DNA of 64,000 nucleotides from a virus (Duplodnaviria; Heunggongvirae; Uroviricota; Caudoviricetes): IMG/VR virus record IMGVR_UViG_3300028887_000105. One strand, given 5' to 3'. A program made the position numbers and the translations under genes. Under the pieces are notes generated by a model, which saw only the letters and a program-made list of their open reading frames with translations, was not told the DNA's origin and made no database searches. Shown piece after piece: positions 16,452-57,824 of the stretch (the first letter of the stretch is position 1; each line of letters starts with the position of its first letter).

Positions 16452-17354
16452 ATGAAGTGTGAAGGAAAAATATTGATCATATTACAAGGTCCTCCTTGTT
16501 CTGGAAAGTCCACATGGGCAAAGGAATATCAGGAAAAGTATCCTGATACATTGGTTGCCAATCGTGATACTATTCGTTATACGCTTGGCGAAGGTAAGTA
16601 TACAATGGACAGAGAAGATGAGGTCACTGAGATTGAAATGGCCCAGGTAAAGGGTGCAATGGGTGCTGGTAGAACTGTTGTTATTGACGACACTAACCTT
16701 AATCCTAAGTATCTTAAGCCTTGGTTAGACCTTGCTGAAGAAAAAGGCTATGAGGTAAGATATGAGAAATTGTACATACCTTATGGCGAGGCAATGGAAC
16801 GTTCTAAGAAGCGTAAGGAAGAAGGTGGTCTTTACATATCAAAAGATGTAATGCAGCGTTTCTATAAGAAATACTTCAAGGAAGAATTCGAGAAGGAAAT
16901 GACTGATTATCGTGTATTCAATATGAATAAGTATGACGATAAATTACCTAATTGTGTTATATGCGATTTAGACGGTACTATTGCTATGCATACGGGCCGA
17001 ACACCATTCGAGTGGGACAGATTATTCGAAGACCAAATTGATTGGCGTATGAAGGATATTTTGCGTGCCCTGGCTGCTACTGGTGCTGAGATTATATTCT
17101 TGACTGGTAGACAGGAATCTGTAAGAGAGAAGACAGAGGAATGGCTTACAGCCAATTTCGGTTGGAAACATCAGTTGATTATGCGTCCAGACAGAGAGTT
17201 TGGTAAGGGTAATGCTGTTAAGAAGGAACTATACGAAAAGTACGTTAAGGGTAAGTATAATGTAATCTGTGTGTTTGATGACGCAAATTATTGCGTTGAT
17301 ATGTGGCGCAATGAGGGATTGTTAACATTACAGGTTCAAGATTCAGATTATTAA
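16452..17354 (+). CDS. pnk: polynucleotide 5'-kinase / 3'-phosphatase (T4 Pnk-like)
   Basis: N-terminal P-loop GPPCSGKSTWA and DTNLNP; C-terminal HAD phosphatase DLDGT, LTGRQE, FDDA..VDMWR; collinear with T4 Pnk. Confidence 0.9.
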   Translation: MKCEGKILIILQGPPCSGKSTWAKEYQEKYPDTLVANRDTIRYTLGEGKYTMDREDEVTEIEMAQVKGAMGAGRTVVIDDTNLNPKYLKPWLDLAEEKGYEVRYEKLYIPYGEAMERSKKRKEEGGLYISKDVMQRFYKKYFKEEFEKEMTDYRVFNMNKYDDKLPNCVICDLDGTIAMHTGRTPFEWDRLFEDQIDWRMKDILRALAATGAEIIFLTGRQESVREKTEEWLTANFGWKHQLIMRPDREFGKGNAVKKELYEKYVKGKYNVICVFDDANYCVDMWRNEGLLTLQVQDSDY

Positions 17355-18451: not shown

Positions 18452-18853
18452 ATGAGAAAGAAAAAAGAAGAAGTAACAGAAGAGTTGGTACAGGAAGTTA
18501 AGTATCCAACAGTAGAAGAATTGGTAATTGAGTGTATTAAACACGACATACCAGTAAACGGTGTTGACTATAATGGTAGAAACCTGGAGTATGAGATTGG
18601 CGGTTTCTCAAAGAGTGGTACTGGAAAACTTACCACTGATGAGGACGGTAATACAATCTTAGTTACCAGATATAATACAGTAAACGAAGTAAGATCCTTT
18701 GAGGATATTGCTGACGTTGCATATGATTGGTATTATAACTACCGAGACAGAGAACCATTTACACAGCCAGATTATAACTGGGCACCAATATTTGTTGAAA
18801 TGGGTCTAATTGAGGAACGAATTGTTAAGACCTACGTCCCTGTAGTTCAATGA
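18452..18853 (+). CDS. hypothetical protein
   Basis: 133-aa ORF. Confidence 0.55.
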   Translation: MRKKKEEVTEELVQEVKYPTVEELVIECIKHDIPVNGVDYNGRNLEYEIGGFSKSGTGKLTTDEDGNTILVTRYNTVNEVRSFEDIADVAYDWYYNYRDREPFTQPDYNWAPIFVEMGLIEERIVKTYVPVVQ

Positions 18854-18910
18854 ATAGAACGTGGGTTTCCTAAACCTAAGATCTGCGTTTGATTCGCAGC
18901 AGGGGTACTT

Positions 18911-19386: not shown

Positions 19387-20202
19387 ATGGAAGAGAAATT
19401 TTTAACTAGAGAAATTGTACAACAAAACGGCTGGGACGAACTAGAGGTTATAACAGCCGACATGCTTGATGGGTATACGGAAATTGGATATGCTGCTTTC
19501 GGTAATTGTTACAATATTACTTCAATTACTATTCCAAATAGCGTAACATATATTGGCAATTCGGCTTTCGCTGGTTGCGACAGTCTTACATCTGTTATTG
19601 TTCCAAACAGCGTCATAACCATTGGTGCGAGTGCTTTTAGGGGTTGTTCAAATCTTAAATCAATTAATATTCCAGATAGTACAAAAGAAATTGGAGAATA
19701 TGCTTTCCATAGATGCAAAAGTCTTACTTCAATTACCATTCCAGATAGTGTAACACGTATGGAAAGCGGCGCTTTCGATGGTTGCTCCAGCCTTACATCT
19801 GTCACTATTCCCAACAGTGTAACATACATGGGATATTGGGTTTTCAACCATTGTTCATTCAAAACCCCAAAAAGATATGATGAACAAGGTCGTTTAATTG
19901 CCTATAAGGGATTTAATGCCGACATGTCATGTCGTGGTTTTCAATATGAGGAGGGTGAAACTTATGAAATGGATGGTGAGATTAAATTATGCGAACGAGG
20001 CTTTCATGCGTGCACAAACCCACTAGATTGTTTGAATTTCTATGGTGGTGAAATATGCAAAGACGTTGTATACCACGAGGTTTACCTTGAAGATGTATCT
20101 GATGAGAGTGGTGATGATTCAAAGGTAGTTGCAAGGAAAATCACCATTGGGCACGAAATAACGCTATCCGAAATGGCAGATATTGCAAGTGGTAAAAAAT
20201 AA
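19387..20202 (+). CDS. BspA-type leucine-rich repeat protein with unique C-terminal domain
   Basis: five to six ~23-aa repeats IPxSVTxIGxxAFxxCxSLTS; no signal peptide. Confidence 0.75.
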   Translation: MEEKFLTREIVQQNGWDELEVITADMLDGYTEIGYAAFGNCYNITSITIPNSVTYIGNSAFAGCDSLTSVIVPNSVITIGASAFRGCSNLKSINIPDSTKEIGEYAFHRCKSLTSITIPDSVTRMESGAFDGCSSLTSVTIPNSVTYMGYWVFNHCSFKTPKRYDEQGRLIAYKGFNADMSCRGFQYEEGETYEMDGEIKLCERGFHACTNPLDCLNFYGGEICKDVVYHEVYLEDVSDESGDDSKVVARKITIGHEITLSEMADIASGKK

Positions 20203-25768: not shown

Positions 25769-27982
25769 ATGGATTACGAGAAAGCATATAAAGAATTAGA
25801 AACAAAAGCGAAGTCATTTATTGCTAGATGGGAAGGCATCGAAGCAATTAATTCTGAACTTGCATTGAAAGAACTAAAGGATATGTTCAATGAATTCACA
25901 GAGAGTGAGGATGAGAAAATAAGGAAAGAACTGATTTACTTTTTTCAAAATAGAAGAAAGCAACAAGAAGAAGATAAGTACTATCAAGGCGTAGAGATTC
26001 TTGACAGATGGATTTCTTGGCTTGAAAAGCAAGGTGAACAGAAACCTATCTCTAAATTTAAGGTCGGAGACCGCATATACGACAAAAGAGATAGTTACAA
26101 CAGAAATGTTATTAGAGAGGTAGGTAAGGATTACTACATAAATGCTTTTGGCCAGAAGATGGATATGGCTTATACCAATGCCAACTTTGAATTTCTAGAG
26201 CATTTAGAGGACGACCATATCGATAGTAAGCCTGCCGAGTGGAGTAAAGAGGATGAAGAAATATGTCAAGGAATAATAAACACACTTGAAGGCTTGTACG
26301 AATCTGCATCAAGCGACACGGTTAAGGCTTTATATGCTGCGAAAGCAGATTGGCTCAAACACCTCAAACCGAAACCGAGACCAGAGTGGAGTGAAGAGGA
26401 TGAAAGTGTAGATACTAGATTTGCGTTTTACACATACAAAGACGAACCTAATGTATTGTATTTGTCAAATGTTTTTGTTGAAGAATCTAGTCGAAACGAA
26501 GGTAAAGGTACCGAAATACTCAAAGTTGCCGAGCAAGTCGCTAAATCACTCAATAAGACTACAATTCGTCTGAAAGTTAAAAAGGAATCTGAAGCAAACG
26601 AGTGGTATTATAAGCATGGGTATTCACTTATACAATGTGAAGATGAATATAATTGGCTTGAAAAGAAAATAGAGCAGAAGCCTATTATGATTCAATGGAC
26701 TGGAGATAATCTCAAAGACGTAACTGAGTTTACTGGTTATTCTCCTAAATTCAGCGAGTGGTTTAAGAATTGGGAAGAATATGAAACTTATGTTCATTCT
26801 CACAACAATATCTTTAAGATGTTTAATGAAGATGGTTCTCACTACGAAGTTCCTGTCGGTGCATGGATTGTAAAAACTCCAGACGGACATAATGTTGCTT
26901 CAAAAGCAACTTATATTCAGAAGCCTGCTTCCAAGGTTGAACCAATGTTTAAGGTTGGTGATTGGATTATATCTGACAAGGCACATGAGGATTATCGTAT
27001 CTGTAAAATTATTGAGGTTGGTAACGGAAATTATAAAATAGAGTCGATACACGGATATTGTGGTTATAACGAATATAAGTATTTTGACAATATATATAGA
27101 CTTTGGACCATTGAGGATGCAAAACCAGGTGATGTACTTGTAGATAATCATCCGTTTATTTTTGAAAAAGTTGATACTTCTGGCCACTGTTATGCTTATT
27201 GCGGTTTAAATCCGTTTGATGAGTTTATGATAGAGTCTGAGGGAGAATCGGGAGAATGGACGTGGCATCCTAATGTACATCCTGCAACAAATGAACAGAT
27301 TAACTTGTTATTTCAGAAAATGGAAGAAGCAGGTTATGAGTGGGATTCCGAAAAGTTAAAGTTGGTCAAAATTGATCAAGAAGAAGAGGACACCCCAAAG
27401 TTTAAGGTAAAAAAAGGTGAATGGTACGTTTGTACTAATACTTTTGTATTAAAAGGTAAAATTATTGCAATTAAGGGACAAACATATCAATCAAAACAAC
27501 AAGATAATACTATAACTTGTGAAGATAATTGTCTTTTTATTGATAGACATGATGGTAAGGCATCAGACTATTTTCGTCTTTGGACTATCCAAGACGCAAA
27601 GCCTGGTGATATCCTTACTGACAAAGATGGTTGTACCTTCATCTTTAGAGAATTAGACGCTGATTTTGACGAAACTATGGCTATGGCTTATTGCGGCATT
27701 AACAGTGATGGTTATTTTATTCTTTGCGAAAAAGGTAGAGTTTGGACAGATCCAGAAGAGGTATATCCAGCAGATTCAGACGATCGTAATCATTTGTTTG
27801 ACAAAATGAGGGACGCTGGTTATGAATGGGATTCCACAAAACTTGAGTTAAAAGTGGTCAAACAGGAACCACCAGTTGTAAAAAATGAAAATAAAGAACG
27901 TTTTGAACGTATTGTTGGATTTCTAAGATATAAAGGGTTTGAAGATGATGCTGACTGGCTCGAATCATCGAAATTTCATTAA
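25769..27982 (+). CDS. mosaic protein: N-terminal helical domain (shared with 5183), GNAT acetyltransferase domain, KVG beta-domains and two ~95-aa tandem repeats
   Basis: GNAT motif A LSNVFVEESSRNEGKGTEIL (RxxGxG); repeats FRLWTIEDAKPGDVL...AGYEWDSEKLKL / FRLWTIQDAKPGDIL...AGYEWDSTKLEL; three FKVGD motifs. Confidence 0.7.
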   Translation: MDYEKAYKELETKAKSFIARWEGIEAINSELALKELKDMFNEFTESEDEKIRKELIYFFQNRRKQQEEDKYYQGVEILDRWISWLEKQGEQKPISKFKVGDRIYDKRDSYNRNVIREVGKDYYINAFGQKMDMAYTNANFEFLEHLEDDHIDSKPAEWSKEDEEICQGIINTLEGLYESASSDTVKALYAAKADWLKHLKPKPRPEWSEEDESVDTRFAFYTYKDEPNVLYLSNVFVEESSRNEGKGTEILKVAEQVAKSLNKTTIRLKVKKESEANEWYYKHGYSLIQCEDEYNWLEKKIEQKPIMIQWTGDNLKDVTEFTGYSPKFSEWFKNWEEYETYVHSHNNIFKMFNEDGSHYEVPVGAWIVKTPDGHNVASKATYIQKPASKVEPMFKVGDWIISDKAHEDYRICKIIEVGNGNYKIESIHGYCGYNEYKYFDNIYRLWTIEDAKPGDVLVDNHPFIFEKVDTSGHCYAYCGLNPFDEFMIESEGESGEWTWHPNVHPATNEQINLLFQKMEEAGYEWDSEKLKLVKIDQEEEDTPKFKVKKGEWYVCTNTFVLKGKIIAIKGQTYQSKQQDNTITCEDNCLFIDRHDGKASDYFRLWTIQDAKPGDILTDKDGCTFIFRELDADFDETMAMAYCGINSDGYFILCEKGRVWTDPEEVYPADSDDRNHLFDKMRDAGYEWDSTKLELKVVKQEPPVVKNENKERFERIVGFLRYKGFEDDADWLESSKFH

Positions 27983-35782: not shown

Positions 35783-36349
35783 ATGACAGTAATATACGGA
35801 AATCGTGGAGATATGGACACCCTTATGCTACCTAGCATATGGGAGAGATTAGACAATGTAAATGTTGTTGAAATCGGTCTTAGAACGTTTCACTTCGAAG
35901 ATAGAGTAGCAGAGGCAATAGCCAATGAGGATGATACTCTTATTCTTTGCGGCCACGGAACGTCCTGGGGCCTTCTACACCCCAATTTCCATACTGGACA
36001 GTATATTATTCACGAGAACAATTATCGTGACATACACGCAAGAAATTTGATATGTGTATGGTGCCATGCTGCTGACTTTGCTGAGAGATATCACGTAAAC
36101 GGTTTTTTTAGTTCAATGTTCATATCGAACGTTAATGAAGCACAAGAGCACCTTGGTAATGGTACAGACCTTACACAAGATCAGATTGGAGACTCGGAAT
36201 TGATATTCTGCAGAAGACTTAATGCACTTCTTAGGGATGGTACACCACTTAACGAGTGGGTGCCTACTTTGAAGAGTTTAATGAATGAAAATAATATGGT
36301 GGAGAGATATAATTATAATGGTTTAAAATTTTTTGAGAATTATGAATGA
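35783..36349 (+). CDS. hypothetical protein with His/Cys dyad arrangement (LILCGHG ... LICVWCHAAD), possible clan-CD-like peptidase fold
   Basis: 188 aa; spacing of GHG and hydrophobic-strand + Cys resembles caspase-like dyad; weak. Confidence 0.5.
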   Translation: MTVIYGNRGDMDTLMLPSIWERLDNVNVVEIGLRTFHFEDRVAEAIANEDDTLILCGHGTSWGLLHPNFHTGQYIIHENNYRDIHARNLICVWCHAADFAERYHVNGFFSSMFISNVNEAQEHLGNGTDLTQDQIGDSELIFCRRLNALLRDGTPLNEWVPTLKSLMNENNMVERYNYNGLKFFENYE

Positions 36350-37811
36350 GATTTTTACACAAAGTGAAAACATCAAGCACGAGTACTGTTGTACTATCGT
36401 GCGCATCGGCGAGATCAAGCCAATCGAGGGCAGGGATCGAATTGTACAGACACTGGTAAACGGTTTGTCTATGGTAATTCGTAAGGACCAGGTAAAAGAG
36501 GGTGACCTTATGATTTACGCGATGAACGAAACACAGTTGTCCGAGAAGTTCCTTGCTGCTAATAACCTGTATGCTATCGACTGTTACGAAAAGAACAGTA
36601 ATGCCCCAGAGGTGGGTCAATTACTATTCGACGGTAAGAACGATGAGGCAAAGGAACACGTTGGTTTCTTCAATAAGTATGGCCGAGTGAAATTGATTAG
36701 ACTTGGTGGTGTACCTTCATTCGGATACCTCTTCACTGTTAACGAACTTGCAAAGGTATATCCTGAGGTTCTTAATGTTAACCTTGAGGAACTGGTAGAC
36801 ACCGACTTCGATACCGTATGCGGTGAGGAATTTGTAAAGGTATATATGCCACCTGTAAAGGAAGCAACACCTCGTGGTTCAAAGGAAGCAAAAATGCAGC
36901 GTAAACTCGCTAAGTTTGATCGTATGCTTCCAGGCCAGTTTGCTTTCCACTATGAGACAAAGCAACTCGCAAGGTACATTTCTTACATCAAGCCTACCGA
37001 CGTGGTAACCATTTCTGTTAAGATGGACGGTACTTCATTTATTGTTGGTAATATCCTTGTTAAGTTCCCTAAGTGGGATGGTTTCTACAAGAAGATATTC
37101 CCATATCTTCCTAAGTTCCTACAATTCACTCGCGAGGATTATGATATTGTTTATTCTTCACGTAAGGTGATTATCAATAAGGATATTAATCCTAACAAGG
37201 GTGAAGGATGGGATGGTGGTTCTGTACAGAAGGCCATTACTGTAGTTGCCGATCTTATCAGGGACTATGTTCCTAAGGATATGACTATCTACGGTGAGAT
37301 TGTTGGTTATTACAATCAGACTAACAAGGCTATCCAAACTCGTGGTGGTAAGGATTATGACTATGGTTGCCCAGTGGGTACCAACAGGTTTATGCCTTAT
37401 CGAATTGTTACAAAGAACGAGGATGGTACAAATCACGAATGGAACGTTTGTGAGGTTTACGATTGGACTATCAATTTCATGAAGGAACATGAGGACCTTG
37501 CTAAGTACGTACAACCAATCGTTATCGTTTACCACGGTACGCTTGCTGACCTTTATCCACAACTTGACGTTGAGAATCATTGGCACGAGAATGTTCTTGA
37601 GGCTATGAAGAACGACAAGAAGACACTTGGTCTTGAGGTATATGAGCCAATGTGTAAGGATAAGGTATGGCGTGAAGGTGTAGTACTCCGTGTTGACGAC
37701 GATATGGTTAACGAAGCCTTCAAGTTGAAGAGTGTTAAATACTCTGAGAAGGAACGTGAGGATTACGACAAGGGTGTCATTGACCAGGAAGCAATGGAAG
37801 GATACCTTTAA
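36342..37811 (+). CDS. RNA ligase (covalent nucleotidyltransferase superfamily) with N-terminal OB-like domain
   Basis: track start 36333 is TTG, ATG at 36342; motif I ISVKMDGTS (KxDG), III TIYGEIVG, IV REGVVLRV (EGxxxR/K), V FKLKSVK; ~200-aa N-terminal OB-like domain as in Rnl5-type ligases; GC above background. Confidence 0.8.
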   Translation: MNEIFTQSENIKHEYCCTIVRIGEIKPIEGRDRIVQTLVNGLSMVIRKDQVKEGDLMIYAMNETQLSEKFLAANNLYAIDCYEKNSNAPEVGQLLFDGKNDEAKEHVGFFNKYGRVKLIRLGGVPSFGYLFTVNELAKVYPEVLNVNLEELVDTDFDTVCGEEFVKVYMPPVKEATPRGSKEAKMQRKLAKFDRMLPGQFAFHYETKQLARYISYIKPTDVVTISVKMDGTSFIVGNILVKFPKWDGFYKKIFPYLPKFLQFTREDYDIVYSSRKVIINKDINPNKGEGWDGGSVQKAITVVADLIRDYVPKDMTIYGEIVGYYNQTNKAIQTRGGKDYDYGCPVGTNRFMPYRIVTKNEDGTNHEWNVCEVYDWTINFMKEHEDLAKYVQPIVIVYHGTLADLYPQLDVENHWHENVLEAMKNDKKTLGLEVYEPMCKDKVWREGVVLRVDDDMVNEAFKLKSVKYSEKEREDYDKGVIDQEAMEGYL

Positions 37812-37885: not shown

Positions 37886-38413
37886 ATGGGATACGAAATT
37901 TCATTTAAACCTACAGAAGAGGCGATGGCTAAATTAAAGCCCTGGGGTGATTCATACCAATCATCAACCAAGAAACAACGAATTGAGTTGATTGCATATT
38001 GTATGAGAAAGTCGGATGAACCGACAATAAAAATATATGATAACATTAATTTCTATCTTAGATTTTTGAAAGAAAGTGTTAGAACCGACGAACGCGCATT
38101 TGCTTATAAAAGATGGAAAGAAAACGAAGAAAAAGAAATATGGTATTGCGGTTGGGAATTTTCCCGTCCTTCCAGTGTCGACATTGATGAGGTTATTGAA
38201 TTTACAACACAGGAATTAACAATTTTAACCGCTGTGGTTGAAACACCAGACTATTTTGAAAATAACGATAAATTCTACGAAAAGTATCGTGAAGTGATAA
38301 AAAGAATTGACGATTTCATTGACACAATGGAAGAAGTTACTATACATGAAATAATTGAAGAACTTGACGAATTTAAAGAGAAATACGAAGAAGAAAATGA
38401 TCAAGAAGTATAG
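37886..38413 (+). CDS. hypothetical acidic protein
   Basis: 175-aa ORF. Confidence 0.5.
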   Translation: MGYEISFKPTEEAMAKLKPWGDSYQSSTKKQRIELIAYCMRKSDEPTIKIYDNINFYLRFLKESVRTDERAFAYKRWKENEEKEIWYCGWEFSRPSSVDIDEVIEFTTQELTILTAVVETPDYFENNDKFYEKYREVIKRIDDFIDTMEEVTIHEIIEELDEFKEKYEEENDQEV

Positions 38414-39311
38414 AATAATAGGGGATATTCATGGTAGAACTAATTGGCATAAGTTAGTAGAACCATTTGACGAAGAAACAATGTACATCTTCGTCGGGGA
38501 TTATGTGGACCCATACTATCATCTGGAAGATGTTACATTTGATCAAATGTTTTCTGAAATGGAATCTATCTTCAAAATGAAACAGGAACATCCTGATAAT
38601 GTAATTATTCTGCTTGGTAACCACGATCTTCAATATATTATAAAATATGGAGAAACAAGTCGTTATGAAATAAGCATCAGTAAAAGGAACAAATTGTTCA
38701 ACTTTTTTGACGAGAATTTGAAATATACAGATGGTGTTGCGTATCAAATTAACAACAAATATCTTATCACGCACGCTGGTGTTACTAAAGAGTGGTATGA
38801 AACATACTTTGGCGAATTTAAAAAAGACACAACGCTTGAAGAAATAGTTAAAAACATAAATGAACTGTGGGAAAACAACAAGTCTGCATTTTATTTTTGT
38901 GGTAAATTCTCAGATTCTTACGGTGTATCGGAATCTCAAGGACCATTATGGATACGACCTGAAACATTATGGTATGCAAATTTATTTGGCTTTGACAGTG
39001 GTATAATTCAAATTGTTGGACATACACCATATGAATCAGATTTCCCTGGTTTGGCACCTAATGATGATAATCGTATAGCAACAATTGGCACCGTAAAAAT
39101 ACCAGCAGACAAAGAAGAAATCGAAAATGATTTATATTTTAATGACGGTACAAATATTTGTCAACGAATTGATAATAAACCATTACATGTAGATATTATA
39201 CTCGTTGATTGTTTACGTCGGGAAACCGCTTGTCTCGACATTGGTGCTGAAACTAACGGTTGGAAACAAGTATATTTTGGTGATGTTGAAAATAAAAAAA
39301 TTAAATGGTAA
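38397..39311 (+). CDS. PPP-family Ser/Thr-phosphatase-like metallophosphoesterase (lambda PPase / ApaH-like)
   Basis: GDIHGR, GDYVDPY (GDxVDRG-like), GNHD, HAGV, GHTP motif series. Confidence 0.8.
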   Translation: MIKKYRIIGDIHGRTNWHKLVEPFDEETMYIFVGDYVDPYYHLEDVTFDQMFSEMESIFKMKQEHPDNVIILLGNHDLQYIIKYGETSRYEISISKRNKLFNFFDENLKYTDGVAYQINNKYLITHAGVTKEWYETYFGEFKKDTTLEEIVKNINELWENNKSAFYFCGKFSDSYGVSESQGPLWIRPETLWYANLFGFDSGIIQIVGHTPYESDFPGLAPNDDNRIATIGTVKIPADKEEIENDLYFNDGTNICQRIDNKPLHVDIILVDCLRRETACLDIGAETNGWKQVYFGDVENKKIKW

Positions 39312-39925
39312 ATATGGAATATAATTATAAATTTACAAGTGGTAAGAATATTTGGTTTACATCTGATATTCATTTTAATCATAAAAACATAATTAAGTAC
39401 TGCCAACGTCCCTGGGAAACAGTAGACGAAATGAATGAGGCGTTAATTGCCAACTGGAATTCGGTTGTTAAAAAAGACGACACGGTATTTATACTCGGAG
39501 ACATTGGATTTGGAAGTGTTACTAAGACAGTAGAATTGGTGTCACGATTAAACGGGCATAAAATTCTATTACCTGGTAATCATGATAGGGAATTCATTCA
39601 TAAAGAAGAGGTTAGAGCGTTATTTGACGACATCCTACCATTGGCATATATTAAAATTGAAGAATTTCATATATATTTATGTCACTTCCCATTCTTATGT
39701 TTCGACGGTGCATACAGTGGTGAAAAAGCAACTTGGCAATTGTTTGGCCACTGCCACTCAAAGAAAGGTTCATTTGGATTGGATTCACAAAGATTGATTC
39801 ATTGTTATCCTACACAATATGATGTAGGTGTTGACAATAACAATTATTTTCCAATCTCATTTGAAACGGTTAAGGAAAAAATTTATGATCAGCAACAAAG
39901 TTTAAATTTGATTAGAGAATGTTAA
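39305..39925 (+). CDS. calcineurin-like metallophosphoesterase
   Basis: SDIHFNH, LGDIGFG, PGNHD, GHCH motifs. Confidence 0.75.
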   Translation: MVNMEYNYKFTSGKNIWFTSDIHFNHKNIIKYCQRPWETVDEMNEALIANWNSVVKKDDTVFILGDIGFGSVTKTVELVSRLNGHKILLPGNHDREFIHKEEVRALFDDILPLAYIKIEEFHIYLCHFPFLCFDGAYSGEKATWQLFGHCHSKKGSFGLDSQRLIHCYPTQYDVGVDNNNYFPISFETVKEKIYDQQQSLNLIREC

Positions 39926-41285: not shown

Positions 41286-42026
41286 ATGAAGATTTGCGCT
41301 ATATCTGATTTACACGGAACGCTCCCCAGTATTGGGGAGTGCGACGTGGTTTTCATTTGCGGTGATATCTTTCCGACCAGGATTGATACGATGACAAAAG
41401 AATGCCACGAGTGGTTCAACGGTCCATTTGCCGATTGGATCAATGAGTTACCTTGCAAACAAGTTTTTCTTATTGCTGGTAATCACGATTTTTATTTGGA
41501 AAGCGAATTGTCATACTTCGGTGAAAATGAACAACACTATACTGAATTAAGCCGAATTAAAAGAATTATTCGTGAAAACGAGAAAATGAAGGATAAACTT
41601 GTGTACCTTCAAGATGAAAGTTATACACTTGAAAACGGTATGAAAGTTTATGGTACACCTTGGTGTATTAGTCCTAAAGGATTTGCTTTCATTGATAGTT
41701 CAGGAAAACCATATGAAGAAATTCCAATGGATTGTGACATCTTGTTAGTACATCAGCCACCAAGGGTAGGTAAATTAGGGTGTTCAAATCCTAATACACA
41801 ATATGAAGTTAACTATGCAAGTAAATCACTTGCAAATGCAATTGCTGACAGACATATCAAGTATGTGTTCTGTGGGCATATTCATAGTGGAATTCACGGT
41901 GGTATATACGTAGATGATACAAAAGAAACATTATATCCGTTCTACAAGGATACTTTGTATTATAACGTATCAATTAAAGATGAAGAATATAAGGTTCGTT
42001 ATGAACCAACTTTTGTAATGATATAA
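41286..42026 (+). CDS. calcineurin-like metallophosphoesterase
   Basis: SDLHG, CGDIFP, AGNHDFY, HQPP, CGHIHSG motifs. Confidence 0.75.
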   Translation: MKICAISDLHGTLPSIGECDVVFICGDIFPTRIDTMTKECHEWFNGPFADWINELPCKQVFLIAGNHDFYLESELSYFGENEQHYTELSRIKRIIRENEKMKDKLVYLQDESYTLENGMKVYGTPWCISPKGFAFIDSSGKPYEEIPMDCDILLVHQPPRVGKLGCSNPNTQYEVNYASKSLANAIADRHIKYVFCGHIHSGIHGGIYVDDTKETLYPFYKDTLYYNVSIKDEEYKVRYEPTFVMI

Positions 42027-42536
42027 ATGGAAACACTTAAATTTAAAAAAGTAGATGAACGTGCGGTAATACCGTTCTATGCACATCCAGGGGATATCGG
42101 GATGGATGTTGTAGGTATTGACCTCACTTATGATTTGGAACACGATATGTATATTTATCGCACTGGACTTGCGTGTGAAATGGCACCTGGCTTTGCTATG
42201 TTCTGCCTCCCACAGAGTCGTAACACCAAGACTGAGGGTTATATTCCTAACTCACCTGGTCTTGTGGATCCAGCAACCTATCGTGGAGAGATACAATTCC
42301 GATATAAAAACCGTGATAAACTCAACGTTTGTTGGTTAACCAAAAAGTTGTATGATAAGTTTGACTTTATAAAGGCCAGAATTGACCGTTACGCGCTTTC
42401 TAAGGCACCTTATGCCGTCGGTGAACGAATTGGTCAATTCGTAATAGTTAAGGTCCCAGAAGTCGAAATTATTGAGACTAATGAATTATCCGAAACAAGT
42501 CGTGGTACTGGCGGATTTGGTAGCACAGGTAAATAA
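42027..42536 (+). CDS. dut: dUTP diphosphatase (dUTPase)
   Basis: GDIGMDV, RTGLA, ATYRGEIQFR, GERIGQFV, SRGTGGFGSTG = dUTPase motifs I-V. Confidence 0.9.
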   Translation: METLKFKKVDERAVIPFYAHPGDIGMDVVGIDLTYDLEHDMYIYRTGLACEMAPGFAMFCLPQSRNTKTEGYIPNSPGLVDPATYRGEIQFRYKNRDKLNVCWLTKKLYDKFDFIKARIDRYALSKAPYAVGERIGQFVIVKVPEVEIIETNELSETSRGTGGFGSTGK

Positions 42537-42537
42537 T

Positions 42538-42894
42538 ATGAAAATCGCAATTGTAGGTAGCAGGATATTTAACGATTATGACAAGTTGGAATCGTTCATA
42601 ACGAACACTTGTCAGGACAACGACTACGAAGTTACCGAAGTTATATCTGGTGGTGCCAGGGGTGCTGATTCACTTGGAGAATTGTACGCAAAAAAATACG
42701 GACTGAAAACTACGATCTTCAAACCTGATTGGGAAAAATACGGTAAGAGTGCTGGATTTAGAAGAAACGTAGATATTATCAAAGCCTGTGACATTTGCTT
42801 TGCATTCTGGGATGGTGAATCTCACGGCACCAAACACGACATTGAGTTGTGTAAACAATACGATAAACCTTGTTATATTTGTTATTTTAAATAA
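42538..42894 (+). CDS. SLOG/DprA-like Rossmann nucleotide-binding protein (DUF2493-like)
   Basis: MKIAIVGSR...VISGGARGADSLGE; ATG 1 nt after dut stop (track ORF 42472 extends upstream in overlap). Confidence 0.55.
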   Translation: MKIAIVGSRIFNDYDKLESFITNTCQDNDYEVTEVISGGARGADSLGELYAKKYGLKTTIFKPDWEKYGKSAGFRRNVDIIKACDICFAFWDGESHGTKHDIELCKQYDKPCYICYFK

Positions 42895-46217: not shown

Positions 46218-46775
46218 ATGAAAGTATTTTTTGATACAGAATTTACTGGTTTACACAAAAATACAACGCTTATTAGCCTTGGTTGTGTAGACGAAGACGG
46301 TAGATCTTTTTATGCTGAGTTTGCCGATTATGACAGGAACCAATGCGATGACTGGATTAAGAAACACGTATTGAAAAACCTCAAGTTTGACCGTGGTGAT
46401 AGTATTGTAGGTCAACTTAATTCTGATGAAGTAACTGAAATTTACGATGACAAGGAACACGTAAAAGAGGCCCTTGCAGAATGGTTGTCAGTATATGACG
46501 AAGTTCAATTAGTTTCTGACGTATGCCATTACGATATGGTATTGTTAATTGACTTGTTTGGTAGTGCATTTGATTTACCAAAGAACGTTTGTCCGTCCTG
46601 TCACGATATTAACCAGGACATTGCTGAACATTACGGTTGTTCTGAAAGAGAGGCGTTTGATAAGTCTCGTGAAGGTATCTTGGCTGATTATGAATTGGAA
46701 ATTAGTGGGGACAAACATAATGCATTGTATGATGCGAAAGTAATTAAACGTTTGTACTTATACGTTTTAAAATAA
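46218..46775 (+). CDS. DEDDh 3'-5' exonuclease (DnaQ/RNase T/oligoribonuclease-like)
   Basis: FFDTEFTG (Exo I), middle Asp motif, HNALYDAKV (Exo III with His). Confidence 0.75.
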   Translation: MKVFFDTEFTGLHKNTTLISLGCVDEDGRSFYAEFADYDRNQCDDWIKKHVLKNLKFDRGDSIVGQLNSDEVTEIYDDKEHVKEALAEWLSVYDEVQLVSDVCHYDMVLLIDLFGSAFDLPKNVCPSCHDINQDIAEHYGCSEREAFDKSREGILADYELEISGDKHNALYDAKVIKRLYLYVLK

Positions 46776-47990: not shown

Positions 47991-48362
47991 ATGACAAAGA
48001 CAGCAGTAATGCAATCGGATTTTAACATCACTGGAGAAATAGGTGGTGTTAAATATAAATATATAAAGATTCCATGGGTTGAACATCTAGAGATATATAA
48101 GTATTATCATGATAGTCAATCTGCGGAAAGAATTAATGAACGTGGTGGTTTTGGTGTAAGAGAAGCCGCTTATATGGGTTATAATCCTCTAGTTATTTGG
48201 GTAATTTATGATTACAGCGAAAAAGATAGTGATTGGACAAAAGTAGCACTCCTTTTTGATAAAGACTCTGATTTTAGATCATACCGTTACAGGGTTTTAA
48301 CTGAAGAAGAATACAAAAGTCTTGATATATTTGAAAAAATTAAAGATACGTATGATAATTGA
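47991..48362 (+). CDS. hypothetical protein
   Basis: 123-aa ORF. Confidence 0.5.
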   Translation: MTKTAVMQSDFNITGEIGGVKYKYIKIPWVEHLEIYKYYHDSQSAERINERGGFGVREAAYMGYNPLVIWVIYDYSEKDSDWTKVALLFDKDSDFRSYRYRVLTEEEYKSLDIFEKIKDTYDN

Positions 48363-48780
48363 AAATGAAAATTATGTTAGTTTTGAAACAGCAAAACTAT
48401 TGAAAGATAATGGATTTGATTGGTCTTGCCGAGCAAGATACGGAAGTGCTGGTTCTTTCTGTTATGAAAAATATCCGATTGAAGCAAGTGGATGTGAAAT
48501 GCACAATTGTATACTTTGTCCAACTCTTCAAATGGCTAAGAAATGGTTAGAAGAAGTTCACAATCTTTTCATTACTATTGAAATAAAAGGTGATCCACGA
48601 AAAGAGGATTTCATTTATTATAAATGGTCTGTTGCAAAATTTTGTTGTGTTAAAATTGAAAGAATTGATAACGGTTTAAACACACCAGAAGATTATTGGC
48701 TTGCACCTGAGGAAGAGGATGAAAAACCTGAATATGCGTGTGAAGCAGCAATTAAATATTGTCTTGAAAATTTGATTTGA
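48352..48780 (+). CDS. paralog family A protein
   Basis: MIIENENYVSFETAKLLKDNGFD ... LQMAKKWLEEVHNLFI ... ACEAAIKYCLENLI. Confidence 0.55.
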   Translation: MIIENENYVSFETAKLLKDNGFDWSCRARYGSAGSFCYEKYPIEASGCEMHNCILCPTLQMAKKWLEEVHNLFITIEIKGDPRKEDFIYYKWSVAKFCCVKIERIDNGLNTPEDYWLAPEEEDEKPEYACEAAIKYCLENLI

Positions 48781-48782
48781 TT

Positions 48783-49202
48783 ATGATAGAAGAAGCATAC
48801 GTTAGTTTTGAAGTGGCAAAACTTCTGAAAGAGAAGGGTTTTGATGTTGATACTCCAACAAGATATGCTATTGAAAAGGTAACAGAATCTTGGTATGATG
48901 ATTATCGGGAAAGAGTTGTTAAATTCGATTGGGATAGCGGTTATTTTTTAGGCATAAATGATATAAAACACGATATTAGTGGAGATACTATATCTGCTCC
49001 TACCCAACAGATGGCAATGCAATGGTTGAGAAAAATGGGTTGGTTTATTCATATTGATGTCATTCGAGAGGTGTCCTGCTGGACAGCAGATATTCAAGAT
49101 ATAAAGAATGATGTTGCCATTTATGCGGTTGAAAAAGAATTTCCCAACTATGAACAAGCATGTGAAGCAGCAATTAAATATTGCCTTGAAAATTTGATCT
49201 AA
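48783..49202 (+). CDS. paralog family A protein
   Basis: track start 48777 is TTG; ATG 48783; EEAYVSFEVAKLLKEKGFD ... identical C-terminus ACEAAIKYCLENLI. Confidence 0.55.
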   Translation: MIEEAYVSFEVAKLLKEKGFDVDTPTRYAIEKVTESWYDDYRERVVKFDWDSGYFLGINDIKHDISGDTISAPTQQMAMQWLRKMGWFIHIDVIREVSCWTADIQDIKNDVAIYAVEKEFPNYEQACEAAIKYCLENLI

Positions 49203-49204
49203 TT

Positions 49205-49402
49205 ATGACTAAGGAAGATAGAGTAGAATTACAAAAGGCTGTATCTAATTTTCTTTACTCGTTTTCGAGCGAGGAAACACGAATGTATGCGCCGTGGGCA
49301 TTTGATTCAACTGGTTTTCAAAAGCCACTTTCAATTGCTGAATTTGCGGCTACATGGATGGAAAGACGTTTGTTAAACAAAATTAAAAATAAAATAAAAT
49401 GA
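49205..49402 (+). CDS. hypothetical protein
   Basis: 65-aa ORF. Confidence 0.4.
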   Translation: MTKEDRVELQKAVSNFLYSFSSEETRMYAPWAFDSTGFQKPLSIAEFAATWMERRLLNKIKNKIK

Positions 49403-50223
49403 AATTTAAAAGTCTAGAAGAAAAGTGTTTGTATTACAGAGGTTTAACTGATTATAAACTTCTGCCTAACAGTAATATTCTTGTCATGCTTGACGGTAAA
49501 AACTTTAGTCGTCTCATCAAGAATAACTTTAAGAAACCGTTTGATGATGATTTTATCAGAATGATGAACAACACGGCTAAGTTCCTGTGTGAAAACGTAC
49601 AGGGATGTAAGTTTGCATATGTTCAGTCTGATGAGATCTCATTGCTCATTACCGATTATGACACACCAGAGACCGACTTGCTGTTTGGTGGTAGACTTTG
49701 CAAGATTGAATCTATTCTTGCTTCCCTGGCTACGTCAGAGTTCAATCGCCAATTCATTAAGTATCACTTGTTTGAGAAGAGAGAAAATTGGTCTGGTGTT
49801 GGTTTCGCAGGCCTTTCTGATCAACTTGATAAAATGAAGATGGCTCAGTTTGACTGCAAGGCTTGGACTGTACCTAATTTTAACGATGCATTTGCTTGGT
49901 TCCTATATCGTCAGATTGACTGTATCCGTAACTCAAAGCAGCAGACTGCTCAAACCTATGTTCCACACAAAGAACTGGTTAAAAAAGATACTGATCAACA
50001 AATTGCAATTTGTAGAGAAAAAACCGATATTGATTGGAATGATTTTGCCAACCAATACAAATATGGTAGATTTGTTTACAAGGTAGAAAAGGAACTTACT
50101 ACTACTCTTCCTGACGGTAAGGAAATCACTTATTTCAGAAACAAATTCGAGGCTGTACCAGCGTTTGAATTGACGAAGGAAGGAAATAAAGACAAGTTTA
50201 TCAATCTTATTTTCGAATCATGA
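49399..50223 (+). CDS. Thg1-like 3'-5' nucleotidyltransferase (tRNA-His guanylyltransferase family, TLP)
   Basis: ILVMLDGKNFSRL...KPFDDDFIRMMNNTAKFL...FAYVQSDEISLLI aligns with Thg1 VVRLDGRNFHRF...KPND...AYGQSDEYSFVF incl. catalytic Asp residues. Confidence 0.85.
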   Translation: MKFKSLEEKCLYYRGLTDYKLLPNSNILVMLDGKNFSRLIKNNFKKPFDDDFIRMMNNTAKFLCENVQGCKFAYVQSDEISLLITDYDTPETDLLFGGRLCKIESILASLATSEFNRQFIKYHLFEKRENWSGVGFAGLSDQLDKMKMAQFDCKAWTVPNFNDAFAWFLYRQIDCIRNSKQQTAQTYVPHKELVKKDTDQQIAICREKTDIDWNDFANQYKYGRFVYKVEKELTTTLPDGKEITYFRNKFEAVPAFELTKEGNKDKFINLIFES

Positions 50224-50504
50224 ACAGTGAACAACCAACATATTATCAACCGCTGACGCTTGAAAAATTGAATCAAGCGGTTGCAGAACTCGCTAGGCAC
50301 CAGGCTATTCAAGAAAGAAACTTTGAGGCCTGGTACCAAAAAGCGTGTCAGATGAACCCAGACTTAAGAAAACAAGTTGAGGCAGAAATTCGAAGAGAGG
50401 TTAGTAAGTGGCGTAATGATAACTGTGATTTTGAAGTCACTGAAAATCAAATAAGATCTTATTTAAAAACTAAACTAAGAGAACTTAGTGTATTTACAAG
50501 TTAA
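50220..50504 (+). CDS. hypothetical protein
   Basis: 94-aa ORF. Confidence 0.45.
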   Translation: MNSEQPTYYQPLTLEKLNQAVAELARHQAIQERNFEAWYQKACQMNPDLRKQVEAEIRREVSKWRNDNCDFEVTENQIRSYLKTKLRELSVFTS

Positions 50505-50506
50505 TT

Positions 50507-51340
50507 ATGGAAAACGAACACGTTGAATTTTTTAAGAAATTATCAGAATATAGGAAAGAATGTGATGAACATTCTCCTGATTCATTTAGTATAGTTGCTC
50601 AGGAACTATACGGTATGAGTGTAAAAGAAGCCCAAATGCTTTTTACGAAGTATAAGAGGATCCTTGCTGGTTGGTGGGATTGGGAAGAAAATGAAGATGA
50701 AGGTATTGAAGTTGCCACAAAGGGTAAAGCAGTACTTGAGCATTCATTTAAACTAACTCCTTCCAAAAAGTGGGATGGTATTAAATCATACCTTGATAGT
50801 GACGAATACGGATATAAAAACCACATTGCTGTATGGGTTAAATATACCGATAAAGAGCAGCCACAAATGCTTGAATTAAAGATTGATTCGGTAAAGAACC
50901 TTGCTATGATTCACGATTTAGCCGAAAGGGAAGACGTTGAGGTTTTATGTATTGTACCTAGTGTTGATAGTATTTCAAATTTACAAGATTGTGAAAATGA
51001 CGTTGATACCAGGAATGGTAGAATGCGTGTATATGATGGAGACATTTTTGTTCTTTCCAATCATGGTGCTGATGACTATTGGAATAGACCGAAAGAGAAC
51101 GGTGTATATGTATGTATGCACGGTGCATATCGCAGATTGCTTTACACTATTGGTAGAGGTTATGTTAATACCAGTAAGCAGCCTAACATAGCAAATAATA
51201 GTAGTCGTGATGACGATTATGGTGAGGTATTCACATATCACGAGGGTAAATGGAACCAGCATTTGCTTACTATGGATCACAAATGGAAACGAATTGGTAA
51301 TATCCACGCAGATATAAGCCTGTTAATGGAAAAAAATTAG
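50507..51340 (+). CDS. hypothetical protein
   Basis: 277-aa ORF. Confidence 0.55.
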   Translation: MENEHVEFFKKLSEYRKECDEHSPDSFSIVAQELYGMSVKEAQMLFTKYKRILAGWWDWEENEDEGIEVATKGKAVLEHSFKLTPSKKWDGIKSYLDSDEYGYKNHIAVWVKYTDKEQPQMLELKIDSVKNLAMIHDLAEREDVEVLCIVPSVDSISNLQDCENDVDTRNGRMRVYDGDIFVLSNHGADDYWNRPKENGVYVCMHGAYRRLLYTIGRGYVNTSKQPNIANNSSRDDDYGEVFTYHEGKWNQHLLTMDHKWKRIGNIHADISLLMEKN

Positions 51341-56370: not shown

Positions 56371-56721
56371 ATGGAACGAGTAATAGCAGCAGCATATAAG
56401 GTAAAACCTGAATTTGTATGCCATAAAAAACATGGCATAGCCAAGGTTGGTACTAATAGAACTGAGGTGGATGATATCTATCAGTGCAGAATTGGTCGGC
56501 ACCACGCAGAGATACTTCATATATTTGGTAAAGAAGTTGATCATCATACAGATGGATTCTATACTTCTTATGGTAGATATGTAGACAGAGAAGAAGCGGC
56601 AAAGATTGCTATTGCTGCAGGACAAATAAAAGAATGTCACTATTGGGGTCATAACAAACTTGATTCCAGTGACCTTTTTGATTTAGATTACGATGGTTAT
56701 CCAATAGAATTTGATGAATAA
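56371..56721 (+). CDS. hypothetical His-rich protein
   Basis: 116 aa; GRHHAEILH...DHHTDG. Confidence 0.5.
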   Translation: MERVIAAAYKVKPEFVCHKKHGIAKVGTNRTEVDDIYQCRIGRHHAEILHIFGKEVDHHTDGFYTSYGRYVDREEAAKIAIAAGQIKECHYWGHNKLDSSDLFDLDYDGYPIEFDE

Positions 56722-56728
56722 ATGAATT

Positions 56729-57163
56729 ATGAAAACAAGTGAACTTCAAAACGAAACCAGTTCTTTGATAAAAGAACATAGCAAATTGTATAAATTAATT
56801 GACGAAAAAGAAGAAGCCATTACAGTTAAAGCAAGGGAATTACTAAATGAATTGCGTAAACTGGATAATTGGGAGGTAATGATTGACGAGTGTAAAGACC
56901 ACTATGAACGATTTCCTGACGAATTCTTTGATTGGTGTCATGTAGAATTTGAAAAAAATAAGGTTTATTTTGTGAAGAATTATAGTGATGACGATGACGA
57001 TTATTATGTTCTTACTATTGATTTGTCTAAGCCTTTAGAAGATCAAATAAAGGAAAAACAAGAAAAGATAAAAAAAGACGAGGAAAAAGAAAAAGAAAAA
57101 ATTAAGGCAAAAGAACTTGCCGAATTAAACCGTTTAAAAGAAAAATATGAAACATTACGATAG
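56729..57163 (+). CDS. coiled-coil hypothetical protein
   Basis: 144 aa; KEKEKIKAKELAELNRLKEKYE. Confidence 0.5.
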   Translation: MKTSELQNETSSLIKEHSKLYKLIDEKEEAITVKARELLNELRKLDNWEVMIDECKDHYERFPDEFFDWCHVEFEKNKVYFVKNYSDDDDDYYVLTIDLSKPLEDQIKEKQEKIKKDEEKEKEKIKAKELAELNRLKEKYETLR

Positions 57164-57824
57164 TATACCGAGAATACAAGATGATGGCACTTTGAAAGGT
57201 GAAATGGTTGTAGGTTATAACAAACTGGATGGCCAAAACTTTTGTGTAGCATATAATTGTAGAAAGAAAACCTGGGGTCCTTACGGTTCCAGGACAGTGA
57301 CTGTAGATGAAAACTCTGAACAGTTTGGAGAAACTGTAAAGTTCTTTAACAACTCTGATTACAAGGAGATTCTGGAAAGAATTGTGAAGGAGTTTTCTGG
57401 AAAGGGTGACGTGTTTAACGGTGTTGATGAAATCACATTCATATTTGAATGGTATGGATGGAATTCATTTGCTGGGAAGCATAAAGAAGGTGATACGATG
57501 AACCTGGCTCTTATTGATGTATTCCTCAAAAAGAGAGGTTATATTGAACCAAAGAATTATGAAATGTGTTTCAGATATTGTGGTATTGAACTTCCCGATC
57601 TAATTTATTCAGGGCCGCTAAATAGCGAAATTATTGAAAAAGTTCAGAACAACGACTGGACACAACCTGATTGTTGGAATCCACACGTTCACGAAGGTGT
57701 TGTATTTAAAAGAACAACATTGCTTAAGGGTCAGCGTAGACCGTCTGTAAAGGTAAAAACAAAGTGGTGGATAGATAAACTTCATTCAATGTATAGTGAA
57801 GAGGAATGTAAAAAACTTGAGTAA
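57147..57824 (+). CDS. Rnl2-like adenylyltransferase-domain RNA ligase (stand-alone NTase domain)
   Basis: motif I YNKLDGQN (KxDG), III ITFIFEWYG, IV HEGVVFKR (EGxxxK), V VKVKTK; size/layout like T4 Rnl2 N-terminal domain. Confidence 0.75.
   Translation: MKHYDSIPRIQDDGTLKGEMVVGYNKLDGQNFCVAYNCRKKTWGPYGSRTVTVDENSEQFGETVKFFNNSDYKEILERIVKEFSGKGDVFNGVDEITFIFEWYGWNSFAGKHKEGDTMNLALIDVFLKKRGYIEPKNYEMCFRYCGIELPDLIYSGPLNSEIIEKVQNNDWTQPDCWNPHVHEGVVFKRTTLLKGQRRPSVKVKTKWWIDKLHSMYSEEECKKLE

Follow-up and report, generated by a model that had tools for sequence, protein, structure and literature searches.

A Thg1-Like Gene in the Genome of a Large Phage

The DNA analysed here (hereafter the window) is a stretch of 64,000 nucleotides from the IMG/VR virus record IMGVR_UViG_3300028887_000105 (Caudoviricetes), and the gene of concern encodes a relative of Thg1 and of the Thg1-like proteins (TLPs). 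It consists of an open reading frame (ORF) of 274 amino acids (aa) that runs from ATG to TGA and occupies exactly positions 49399-50223 of the + strand. A preliminary description of the DNA, made from the sequence alone, had placed the gene there and proposed its product to be a Thg1-like 3'-5' nucleotidyltransferase; the motifs quoted in its favour are present, namely MLDGKNF (with D32), KKPFDDD (with K46) and AYVQSDEIS (with S77-D78-E79), and the assignment is borne out by profile, fold and catalytic residues alike.

The protein matched the Thg1 family of Pfam (PF04446) with 97.5 bits (E=7.5e-28), above the curated gathering cut-off of 29.2, over its residues 17-159 and positions 9-130 of the 130 in the profile; a match of this kind had been named as a check in the preliminary description. 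A search of the PHROG profiles returned phrog_4717, 'tRNA-His guanylyltransferase' (E=2.8e-53), and a search of NCBIfam matched no family. Among solved structures, the top sequence match was the TLP of Bacillus thuringiensis (BtTLP; 4kgk; E=1.7e-26, 96.6 bits, residues 12-228), followed by chains of the TLP from Methanosarcina acetivorans (MaTLP; 5axk, 37.4 bits) and of Candida (3wbz, 37.2 bits) and human (3otb and 7cv1, 30.9 bits) Thg1, with E values of 1.9e-8 to 1.9e-6. The polymerase-like palm fold, named as a second check, is likewise predicted: an AlphaFold2 model of the monomer, built on 43 homologues, had a mean predicted local distance difference test score of 89.1 and a predicted template modelling (TM) score of 0.87, and the top 32 PDB chains retrieved with it by Foldseek all belonged to Thg1/TLP (E 1.9e-19 to 1.8e-12), with the palm domains of adenylyl cyclases and GGDEF proteins next in rank at E>0.04 only. 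The gene product is thus almost certainly a member of the Thg1/TLP superfamily.

The best Foldseek match was BtTLP (4kgk/4kgm; E=1.9e-19, target-normalised TM score 0.86), a cellular enzyme with measured repair activity (PMC3701042; PMC3061083), whereas the window protein is phage-encoded and known from its sequence and a model. The two are of similar length and share the catalytic carboxylates, the equivalents of BtTLP S74, K43, K99 and R147, and the lack of the HINNLYN motif; they differ in being about 26% identical in the structural alignment and at five positions of the nucleotide-binding site, presented below. MaTLP (5axk-5axn; PMC4820378), an archaeal, cellular enzyme whose structures serve as the model of how nucleotides are added to truncated tRNA under the direction of a template, gave the lowest root mean square deviation (2.7 Å; target-normalised TM score 0.81). 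It shares with the window protein an Arg..Lys pair, equivalent to R99 and K102, but keeps an Arg before the catalytic Asp (VVLRADG, compared with ILVMLDG in the window protein). Eukaryotic Thg1 (human 3otb/3otc/7cv1, Candida 3wbz and yeast 5xox) has in common with it the palm fold (target-normalised TM scores of 0.69-0.80), the three carboxylates and, presumably, the two-step chemistry; identity in structural alignments is 18-22%, and R27, R130 and E13 of Thg1 are replaced in the window protein.

Catalytic Residues and Assignment as a TLP

The active-site carboxylates D30, D75 and E76 of BtTLP, which correspond to D29, D76 and E77 of human THG1 (PMC3701042), align with D32, D78 and E79 of the window protein. 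When mapped to BtTLP D30/S74/D75/E76/K99/R147 by means of the 4kgk sequence alignment and PMC3701042, residues D32, S77, D78, E79, K102 and R171 were found to be invariant in all 43 members of the window's clade; conserved metal-binding Asp residues had also been noted in the preliminary description. Over 214 sequences with the remodelled site presented below, D32 is kept in 213 and S77, D78 and E79 in every one, which argues for purifying selection on an active enzyme, and the TLP of the window is likely to be catalytically active. Also conserved in the remodelled TLPs is D174, the equivalent of D150 in PMC12632743. The residues associated with the activation step (yeast K44 and S75/S76; BtTLP K43 and S74) have their counterparts in the window protein as well. 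Of these, K43 is required in BtTLP for ATP-dependent but not GTP-dependent activation (PMC3701042); its equivalent, K46, is present in the window protein and in 34 of the 43 clade members, with Leu in eight.

The HINNLYN motif is specific to eukaryotes and stacks on the anticodon of tRNA-His, thereby reading GUG (PMC6471195). It is absent from the window protein, in which D174-C-I-R-N-S-K-Q-Q stands where Candida Thg1 has D-C-H-I-N-N-L-Y-N; the stretch CIRNSKQQ instead resembles A-S-K-N-S-I-S-M of BtTLP. Residues N178-S179 are invariant in the clade, as are their counterparts N154-S155 in BtTLP, such that a D-x-x-x-N-S motif takes the place of HINNLYN. Since this motif is BtTLP-like and the protein is nearer in sequence to TLPs, it is classed here as a TLP, predicted to be of the template-dependent type, and not as a tRNA-His-specific Thg1 in the strict sense; non-templated addition of G-1 opposite A73 of tRNA-His is consequently not expected of it.

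A Remodelled Nucleotide-Positioning Site

In BtTLP, the triphosphate of the incoming nucleoside triphosphate (NTP) is held by R28, K99', R131 and R16', and the crystal structure revealed E12 in salt bridges with both R28 and R131 (PMC3701042); three of the positions replaced in the window protein are therefore in mutual contact. With the yeast enzyme, R27, K96 and R133 are described as important for the nucleotidyl-transfer step (PMC3701042), and R27 and R130 have been listed among the strongly conserved, catalytically critical residues (PMC12632743). With the N-terminal alignment anchored on Y-[E/R]-x-x-T-[R/D], the window protein was observed to carry R14 for E12 of BtTLP, D18 for R16, M30 for R28, R99 for N96 and K154 for R131; from the set of E12, R28, K99 and R131, the Lys alone is kept, as K102. 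The family Arg that precedes the first catalytic Asp by two residues (R27 of the yeast and human enzymes, R28 of BtTLP) is hence Met30. The N-terminus had been described as aligning motif-for-motif with Thg1/TLP, which is accurate for the motifs quoted but not for this Arg, nor for the family Glu, which is Arg14. Over the six site positions, the net charge is +3 in the canonical and the remodelled arrangement alike. The triphosphate is presumably still bound, with other side chains taking over this task, and it might be guessed that R14 compensates for the lost Arg. Compared with BtTLP, the window protein also has an extra, variable insertion at about residues 121-146, modelled with lower confidence.

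The distribution of the two arrangements was followed in viral and cellular TLPs. Among 81 viral sequences, the 34 that belong to the window's clade have [R/K/Q]14, [M/H/A]30 and K154, whereas the canonical residues E14, R30 and R154 are found in 46-47 of the other 47. A cellular set was composed of 79 TLPs, with one genome per bacterial or archaeal species and two sequences truncated at position 14; R is kept at both 30 and 154 in 78 of them, as is E at 14 where this position is covered. The solved structures of BtTLP, MaTLP and Candida Thg1 (CaThg1) retain the canonical residues wherever the aligned fragment reaches. Across 419 distinct TLPs, positions 14/30/154 read E/R/R in 187, R/M/K in 177 and Q/H/K in 21, with few intermediates, and clustering at 50% identity divides the remodelled clade into at least 57 groups. 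The E/R/R site is treated here as a conserved functional feature rather than as a definition of the family, and its loss marks a divergent subfamily. What is new is the membership of the gene in this subfamily, which is diverse, encountered only on phage DNA, and distinguished by the coordinated replacement of the NTP-positioning triad.

The lone exception labelled as cellular (locus L085), the TLP of which is 65% identical to the window protein, is situated on JAFRDD010000067.1, a sequence of 47 kb assigned to the goat-gut metagenome-assembled genome (MAG) 'Clostridia bacterium RGIG2387'. A cellular origin of the remodelled type was considered and rejected, as the flanks of this locus are collinear with those of a viral contig (L007), to which they are 83-98% identical at the protein level, and also match a megaphage contig (L003); the sequence is a phage contig mis-binned into the MAG. 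The NCBI label 'Clostridia' on the TLP (P0075) stems from such mis-binning.

Loss of the equivalents of R28 and R131 might be thought to cripple nucleotidyl transfer, leaving an RNA-binding factor or an enzyme that would do no more than adenylylate or guanylylate 5' ends, and alanine substitutions of yeast R27 and R133 are indeed described as greatly reducing the transfer step (PMC3701042). Such an inactive or non-polymerase protein is regarded as very improbable. The metal-binding carboxylates, together with S77, K102 and R171, are essentially invariant over the 214 diverse members of the remodelled type, while pseudo-enzymes usually lose catalytic residues; moreover, K154 is positively charged as R131 is, and further positive charges are introduced beside the site by R14 and R99.

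Phage Origin and Relatives Among Phages

The identical protein is encoded on a metagenomic contig of 253,946 bp (ENA ERZ27257203, k141_2048293). Nearly all substantial ORFs of the window are on the + strand, its guanine-plus-cytosine (GC) skew is positive throughout and its GC content is 0.35. A megablast search with the 6 kb around the TLP gene gave no nucleotide match to GenBank phages, and hence this phage has no close sequenced relative. At the protein level, the closest TLPs in GenBank are those of the Prevotella Lak-A, Lak-B and Lak-C megaphages (52-54% identity over 97-99% of the length), and when ranked by coverage multiplied by identity, Lak proteins were also the best matches to two RNA ligases of the window, a small one (58-59%) and a large one (30-34%); for the latter, Synechococcus phage B3 has a raw score similar to Lak. 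Close homologues of the TLP (56-90% identity) were found on contigs of up to 473 kb, and relatives on IMG/VR viral contigs of 130-450 kb. The source of the window is a gut megaphage distantly related to Lak, with a contig of at least 254 kb. The phage origin taken for granted in the preliminary description is accordingly upheld by the one-strand arrangement of genes, the size of the contig, the Lak relatives of three window genes and the homologues on viral contigs.

The Lak TLPs are unannotated in their GenBank records, and the gene is mentioned neither in a paper on Lak (PMC6784885) nor in one on huge phages (PMC7162821). The R/D/M/R/K signature of the window protein is present in three Lak-like IMG/VR loci (L012, L013 and L033). 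Two differences separate the window from Lak, these being the lack of similarity at the nucleotide level and the genetic code, which is standard in the window while the Lak phages are described as alternatively coded (PMC8346664). A Lak-type code was tried and rejected for the window; recoding TAG or TGA lengthens none of its longest ORFs, and with 90 long + strand frames ending in TAG (6), TAA (64) or TGA (20), TAG is rare but not recoded. A hint of a host within the Bacteroidota is provided by a Bacteroidales-type Mfa_like_1 fimbrillin gene on the related 473-kb contig (L003).

That a phage encodes a TLP is, in itself, already known. Homologues of Thg1 were identified in Pseudomonas phage 201phi2-1 and in mimivirus by Anantharaman, Iyer and Aravind in 2010 (PMC2904730), and phage TLPs were reported again in 2021 (PMC7824862). 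Homologues exist in 159 GenBank phage records, many of them annotated as 'tRNA-His guanylyltransferase', and on at least 585 IMG/VR contigs, and the family as a whole comprises 4,606 representative clusters at E<=1e-3 among 1.84 billion representatives. The preliminary description had called phage-borne TLPs essentially uncharacterised; with respect to experiments this agrees with the literature, but it does not fit the number of records, the annotation of many of them and the existence of a PHROG family. Its interpretation, the restoration of tRNA 5' ends, has also been published as a hypothesis for phage TLPs (PMC2904730; PMC7824862), so that the kind of function was correctly proposed and its novelty over-rated.

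Canonical phage TLPs (phrog_4717) are exemplified by those of Bacillus phages Bcp1 and G, Xanthomonas phage XacN1, Yersinia phage fHe-Yen9-04 and Pseudomonas phage 201phi2-1. As with the window TLP, they are stand-alone proteins, typically of large or jumbo phages, and are often encoded near RNA ligases or tRNA arrays, but they are 29-39% identical to it; their E/R/R type was read from IMG/VR sequences of similar divergence, which share 33-43% identity with the window protein, and not from the named GenBank proteins themselves.

Gene Neighbourhood

The TLP gene shares ATGA start/stop overlaps with both flanking ORFs (Table 1). Neither these two nor the next ORF downstream matched any family, and all three are singletons among 83 related loci. 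A dedicated conserved partner protein was thereby ruled out, and the window TLP is a stand-alone enzyme. ORFs that overlie the TLP coding sequence in a different frame or in antisense were also dismissed, being conserved only through the conservation of the TLP. Scans of the region from 46 to 54 kb for promoters and terminators gave no signal relative to shuffled sequence (40 against 35±5.4 and 6 against 3.6±2.5, respectively).

Table 1. Coordinates of the TLP gene, its functional residues and the other features of the window discussed in the text
Feature	Position	Strand	Basis or remark
TLP gene, 274 aa, remodelled R/M/K subfamily	49399..50223	+	Pfam, PHROG, 4kgk, AlphaFold2/Foldseek
Palm (catalytic) domain, residues 17-159	49447..49875	+	Extent of Pfam match
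R14 codon (third signature)	49438-49440	+	Just upstream of palm domain
M30 codon (signature)	49486-49488	+	Inside palm domain
D32 codon	49492-49494	+	Inside palm domain
S77-D78-E79 codons	49627-49635	+	Inside palm domain
K154 codon (signature)	49858-49860	+	Inside palm domain
Upstream flanking ORF	49205-49402		No family match
Downstream flanking ORF	50220-50504		No family match
Next ORF downstream	50507-51340		No family match
T4-type Pnkp	16452..17354	+	PF25109 HAD_PNKP 130 bits; AAA_33 kinase domain 67 bits
tRNA-Arg(CCT), only tRNA in window	18836-18908
Large RNA ligase, 492 aa, PHA02142 OB-fold and RNA_ligase domains	36333..37811	+	Pfam
Calcineurin-type metallophosphoesterases (three)	38355-39311, 39305-39925, 41286-42026	+	PF00149
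DEDD 3'-5' exoribonuclease, Rv2179c-like	46218..46775	+	PF16473 37.8 bits; PF00929; phrog_2259
Small RNA ligase, 225 aa, nucleotidyltransferase domain only	57147..57824	+	PF09414 33.6 bits; phrog_548
YAcAr/SLOG-family protein	42472-42894		PF10686 45.5 bits
Tandem paralogues	48322-48780, 48777-49202		phrog_12005
T4 Y16D-like protein	56371-56721		PF26092 (precomputed annotation); phrog_839
144-aa ORF	56729-57163
BspA-type leucine-rich-repeat protein with DUF7666	19387-20202
737-aa protein, central GNAT acetyltransferase domain	25769-27982
SPFH/Band-7 protein	31551-32714

Genes for the healing of RNA ends, for their sealing and for the restoration of nucleotides co-occur in the 64-kb window and in related loci, as in the phage RNA-repair sets exemplified by Pnkp and Rnl of T4 and by the systems of jumbo phages (PMC7824862). 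In the window, these include the T4-type polynucleotide kinase-phosphatase (Pnkp) and the two RNA ligases, to which the TLP would be functionally linked. The small RNA ligase is the most consistent companion of the TLP clade, with homologues within 10 kb in nine loci. The three metallophosphoesterases are putative participants in RNA-end healing; calcineurin-like phosphatases have been implicated in this process in a few jumbo phages (PMC7824862). They are located directly downstream of the large RNA ligase, and the group may be a healing-and-sealing module in which they serve as the phosphatase. The DEDD exoribonuclease is found 2.6 kb upstream of the TLP gene, and two related loci (L004 and L008) likewise have a DEDD exonuclease close to their TLP.

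Similar associations were encountered in related loci. With families called by iterative hidden Markov models, at least one gene of an RNA-repair family was present within 10 kb of the TLP in 21 of 33 close-clade and 20 of 50 more distant loci. In the Lak genomes (540-550 kb), the sole homologue of the large RNA ligase is 2.6-2.8 kb from the TLP. On the 473-kb contig (L003), KptA/Tpt1 is encoded directly upstream of the TLP, with two RNA ligases within 6 kb, and on a contig of 388 kb (L004) the 10 kb upstream contain genes for an HD-kinase, a CCA-adding enzyme, RlaP and an RNA ligase, the DEDD exonuclease being downstream. RlaP, the CCA-adding enzyme, KptA and HAD_SAK thus adjoin the TLP in related loci, and with the cultured phage XacN1, an RNA ligase is 4.2 kb from it. 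That several megaphage lineages, independently of one another, encode the TLP amid genes for the healing and sealing of RNA is the second new finding of this analysis.

A different set of neighbours distinguishes the canonical phage TLPs. Genes of the nicotinamide adenine dinucleotide (NAD+) salvage type, which comprise NAMPT/NAPRTase, phosphoribosyl-pyrophosphate (PRPP)-synthetase-like, Nuc_deoxyri_tr2 and Macro-like genes, are present in 25 of the 50 loci with E/R/R TLPs (L035-L084), compared with five of the 33 in the window's clade; they are the commonest neighbours of canonical-type TLPs, with NAMPT in 22 loci, the PRPP-synthetase-like gene in 20 and Nuc_deoxyri_tr2 in 19. This distribution suggests a combined counter-defence island around canonical phage TLPs, in which the reconstitution of NAD+ would be coupled with RNA repair. 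The window itself encodes a protein of the YAcAr/SLOG family, for which derivatives of NAD+ or ADP-ribose are the predicted substrates in jumbo phages (PMC7824862), and homologues of it are located near the TLP in three other loci (L011, L019 and L062).

Proposed Function and its Alternatives

The preferred substrates of BtTLP and MaTLP are tRNAs truncated at the 5' end, to which either enzyme adds whichever nucleotide the template calls for, with no restriction to tRNA-His (PMC3061083; PMC4820378); with BtTLP, truncated tRNAs are favoured 5-160-fold over -1 addition (PMC3061083). By homology with these enzymes, the TLP of the window would first use ATP or GTP to activate an RNA end that bears a 5'-monophosphate. 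An incoming NTP, selected by Watson-Crick pairing with the opposite strand, would then attack the activated end through its 3'-OH, and the RNA would be extended in the 3'-to-5' direction. The likeliest substrate would be a tRNA that lacks one or more nucleotides of the 5' strand of its acceptor stem, with the intact 3' strand as template, and the TLP may represent one tool of a dispersed phage RNA-repair kit that keeps tRNAs usable during infection. Taken as a whole, template-directed repair of 5'-truncated tRNA by a megaphage TLP is the explanation preferred here and is considered somewhat probable; that this repair of tRNA 5' ends forms part of counter-defence is a proposition for which the chances are judged to be even.

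A number of observations weigh against this explanation. A search of the literature found no experimental study or activity assay of any phage TLP, and a limited check of the literature found no defence nuclease that trims the 5' strand of tRNA; the targets named in titles and abstracts on recently described defence nucleases are the anticodon arm or the 3' tail, and the cut sites of bacterial Schlafens have been mapped to the anticodon arm. With R28 (yeast R27) replaced by M30, the transfer step could be reduced or altered. The RNA-repair genes of the window are 2.6-33 kb from the TLP and do not form one operon with it, the nearest RNA ligase being 7 kb away, and its immediate neighbours are not conserved. 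The counts of loci with an RNA-repair gene near the TLP are set against a chance expectation of about 25% that is an estimate (approximately six repair genes scattered randomly over 400 kb, with 20-kb windows) and not a matched background; the association is suggestive.

The maturation or maintenance of tRNA-His, by addition of G-1 opposite C73 on the tRNA of phage or host, is implied by the database name 'tRNA-His guanylyltransferase' and is a role that TLPs could perform, as they are capable of templated addition at this position (PMC3061083). Six phage loci have a TLP in or beside a tRNA array that includes tRNA-His, which in one of them (L061) ends 155 nucleotides upstream of the TLP gene, and odd acceptor stems are seen in two of the six tRNA-His genes. 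However, five of the six, including those of two loci in the window's clade (L010 and L022), already encode G-1 opposite C73, and an encoded G-1 is normally retained by bacterial RNase P (PMC3061083); de novo addition is consequently not required. No tRNA-His is encoded in the window, where the sole tRNA is that for Arg, any tRNA occurs within 10 kb of the TLP in just 19 of 85 loci, and both the missing anticodon-reading motif and the preference of BtTLP for truncated tRNAs also speak against this role. De novo addition of G-1 to tRNA-His by the window TLP is unlikely, and maturation or maintenance of tRNA-His is, as its main function, given rather little credence.

In each of the two odd tRNA-His genes, a pair of adjacent mismatches disrupts the acceptor stem, at positions 5-6 in one (L052, 4028-4113) and 4-5 in the other (L055, 6750-6824), the latter with T at both -1 and 73 in addition; two or more acceptor-stem mismatches occur in none of the 149 other TLP-adjacent tRNAs. 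These stems could reflect a registration problem of ARAGORN, pseudo-tRNAs or real features. With respect to tRNA-Arg(CCT), Pnkp of the window is encoded 1.5 kb upstream of it, and a gene for the same tRNA is 2.6 kb upstream of the TLP in another locus of the clade (L044).

The same survey of tRNA genes bears on 5' editing of the mitochondrial style, in which a TLP would rebuild the 5' strands of mismatched or overlapping acceptor stems of phage tRNAs. Editing of this kind is the only polymerase function of a TLP demonstrated in vivo (DdiTLP3; PMC5041481), and phage tRNA arrays are tightly packed, with gaps of 1-5 nucleotides. Nevertheless, the acceptor stem is fully paired over its 7 bp in 141 of the 155 tRNAs encoded in the vicinity of phage TLPs, and no overlapping genes were found among the 155. 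A mismatch at positions 1-3 was seen in four, two of these being initiator-type tRNA-Met with the normal 1:72 pair and two the same tRNA-Cys (L061 and L081). This explanation was rejected as extremely unlikely.

An altered substrate or chemistry has to be weighed on account of the remodelled site; the subfamily might act on something other than truncated tRNA, for instance by lengthening or tagging further RNAs of phage or host at their 5' ends, or might use another nucleotide donor. R/M/K or Q/H/K replaces residues that every one of the 78 cellular TLPs keeps, as do all solved structures compared, and those of the triad are listed as critical for catalysis (PMC12632743); given the 57 or more clusters of the clade, the new arrangement is stably selected. 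In Dictyostelium enzymes, one exchange at a different conserved position (D150R) causes a switch of substrate specificity (PMC12632743), and DdiTLP4 acts on substrates other than tRNA (PMC5041481), so a change in donor or substrate preference could follow from the residue swap. On the other hand, the remaining catalytic and activation residues are kept, the equivalent of D150 among them, the unchanged net charge of the site fits preserved binding of the triphosphate, the neighbourhood is of the RNA-repair type as it is for canonical phage TLPs, and no positive evidence points to another substrate. An altered substrate or chemistry is accordingly held to be unlikely. Its stronger form is more doubtful: the R/M/K and Q/H/K TLPs would be phage-only 3'-5' polymerases with a donor or substrate specificity unlike that of all characterised Thg1/TLP enzymes. 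Such enzymes might tag or extend 5' ends other than those of truncated tRNAs, or restore ends cut by a host defence nuclease as yet undescribed.

Implications

The discovery of repair activity in TLPs of the bacterial and archaeal type dates from 2010, and the question of their physiological role has stood open ever since (PMC3061083; PMC5041481). Phage TLPs situated amid genes for Pnkp, RNA ligase, RlaP, KptA and CCA-adding enzymes offer a concrete setting in which the repair hypothesis can be tested, and the existence of cultured carriers, XacN1, fHe-Yen9-04, Bcp1 and phage G, makes knock-outs feasible. The R/M/K subfamily represents a natural experiment on residues deemed critical for nucleotidyl transfer; if active, its members would reveal an alternative way of building the transfer site, and they could widen the set of 3'-5' polymerases used as tools for labelling the 5' ends of RNA (PMC11404450). 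Should their specificity prove distinct, a counter-defence function would become tied to the long-unknown biology of prokaryotic-type TLPs, whereas behaviour exactly like that of BtTLP would make the gene of the window one more accessory RNA-repair gene of a giant phage.

Other Genes of the Window

Just upstream of the TLP gene and its flanking ORF are tandem paralogues of a family of unknown function (Table 1), both of which end in ...ACEAAIKYCLENLI. The T4 Y16D-like gene precedes that of the small RNA ligase by 0.4 kb, with the single 144-aa ORF between them, and Y16D-like homologues occur near TLPs in five other loci (L008, L020, L034, L035 and L054). The BspA-type leucine-rich-repeat protein, the 737-aa protein with its GNAT domain and the SPFH/Band-7 protein are encoded farther upstream in the window and have no evident link to the TLP.

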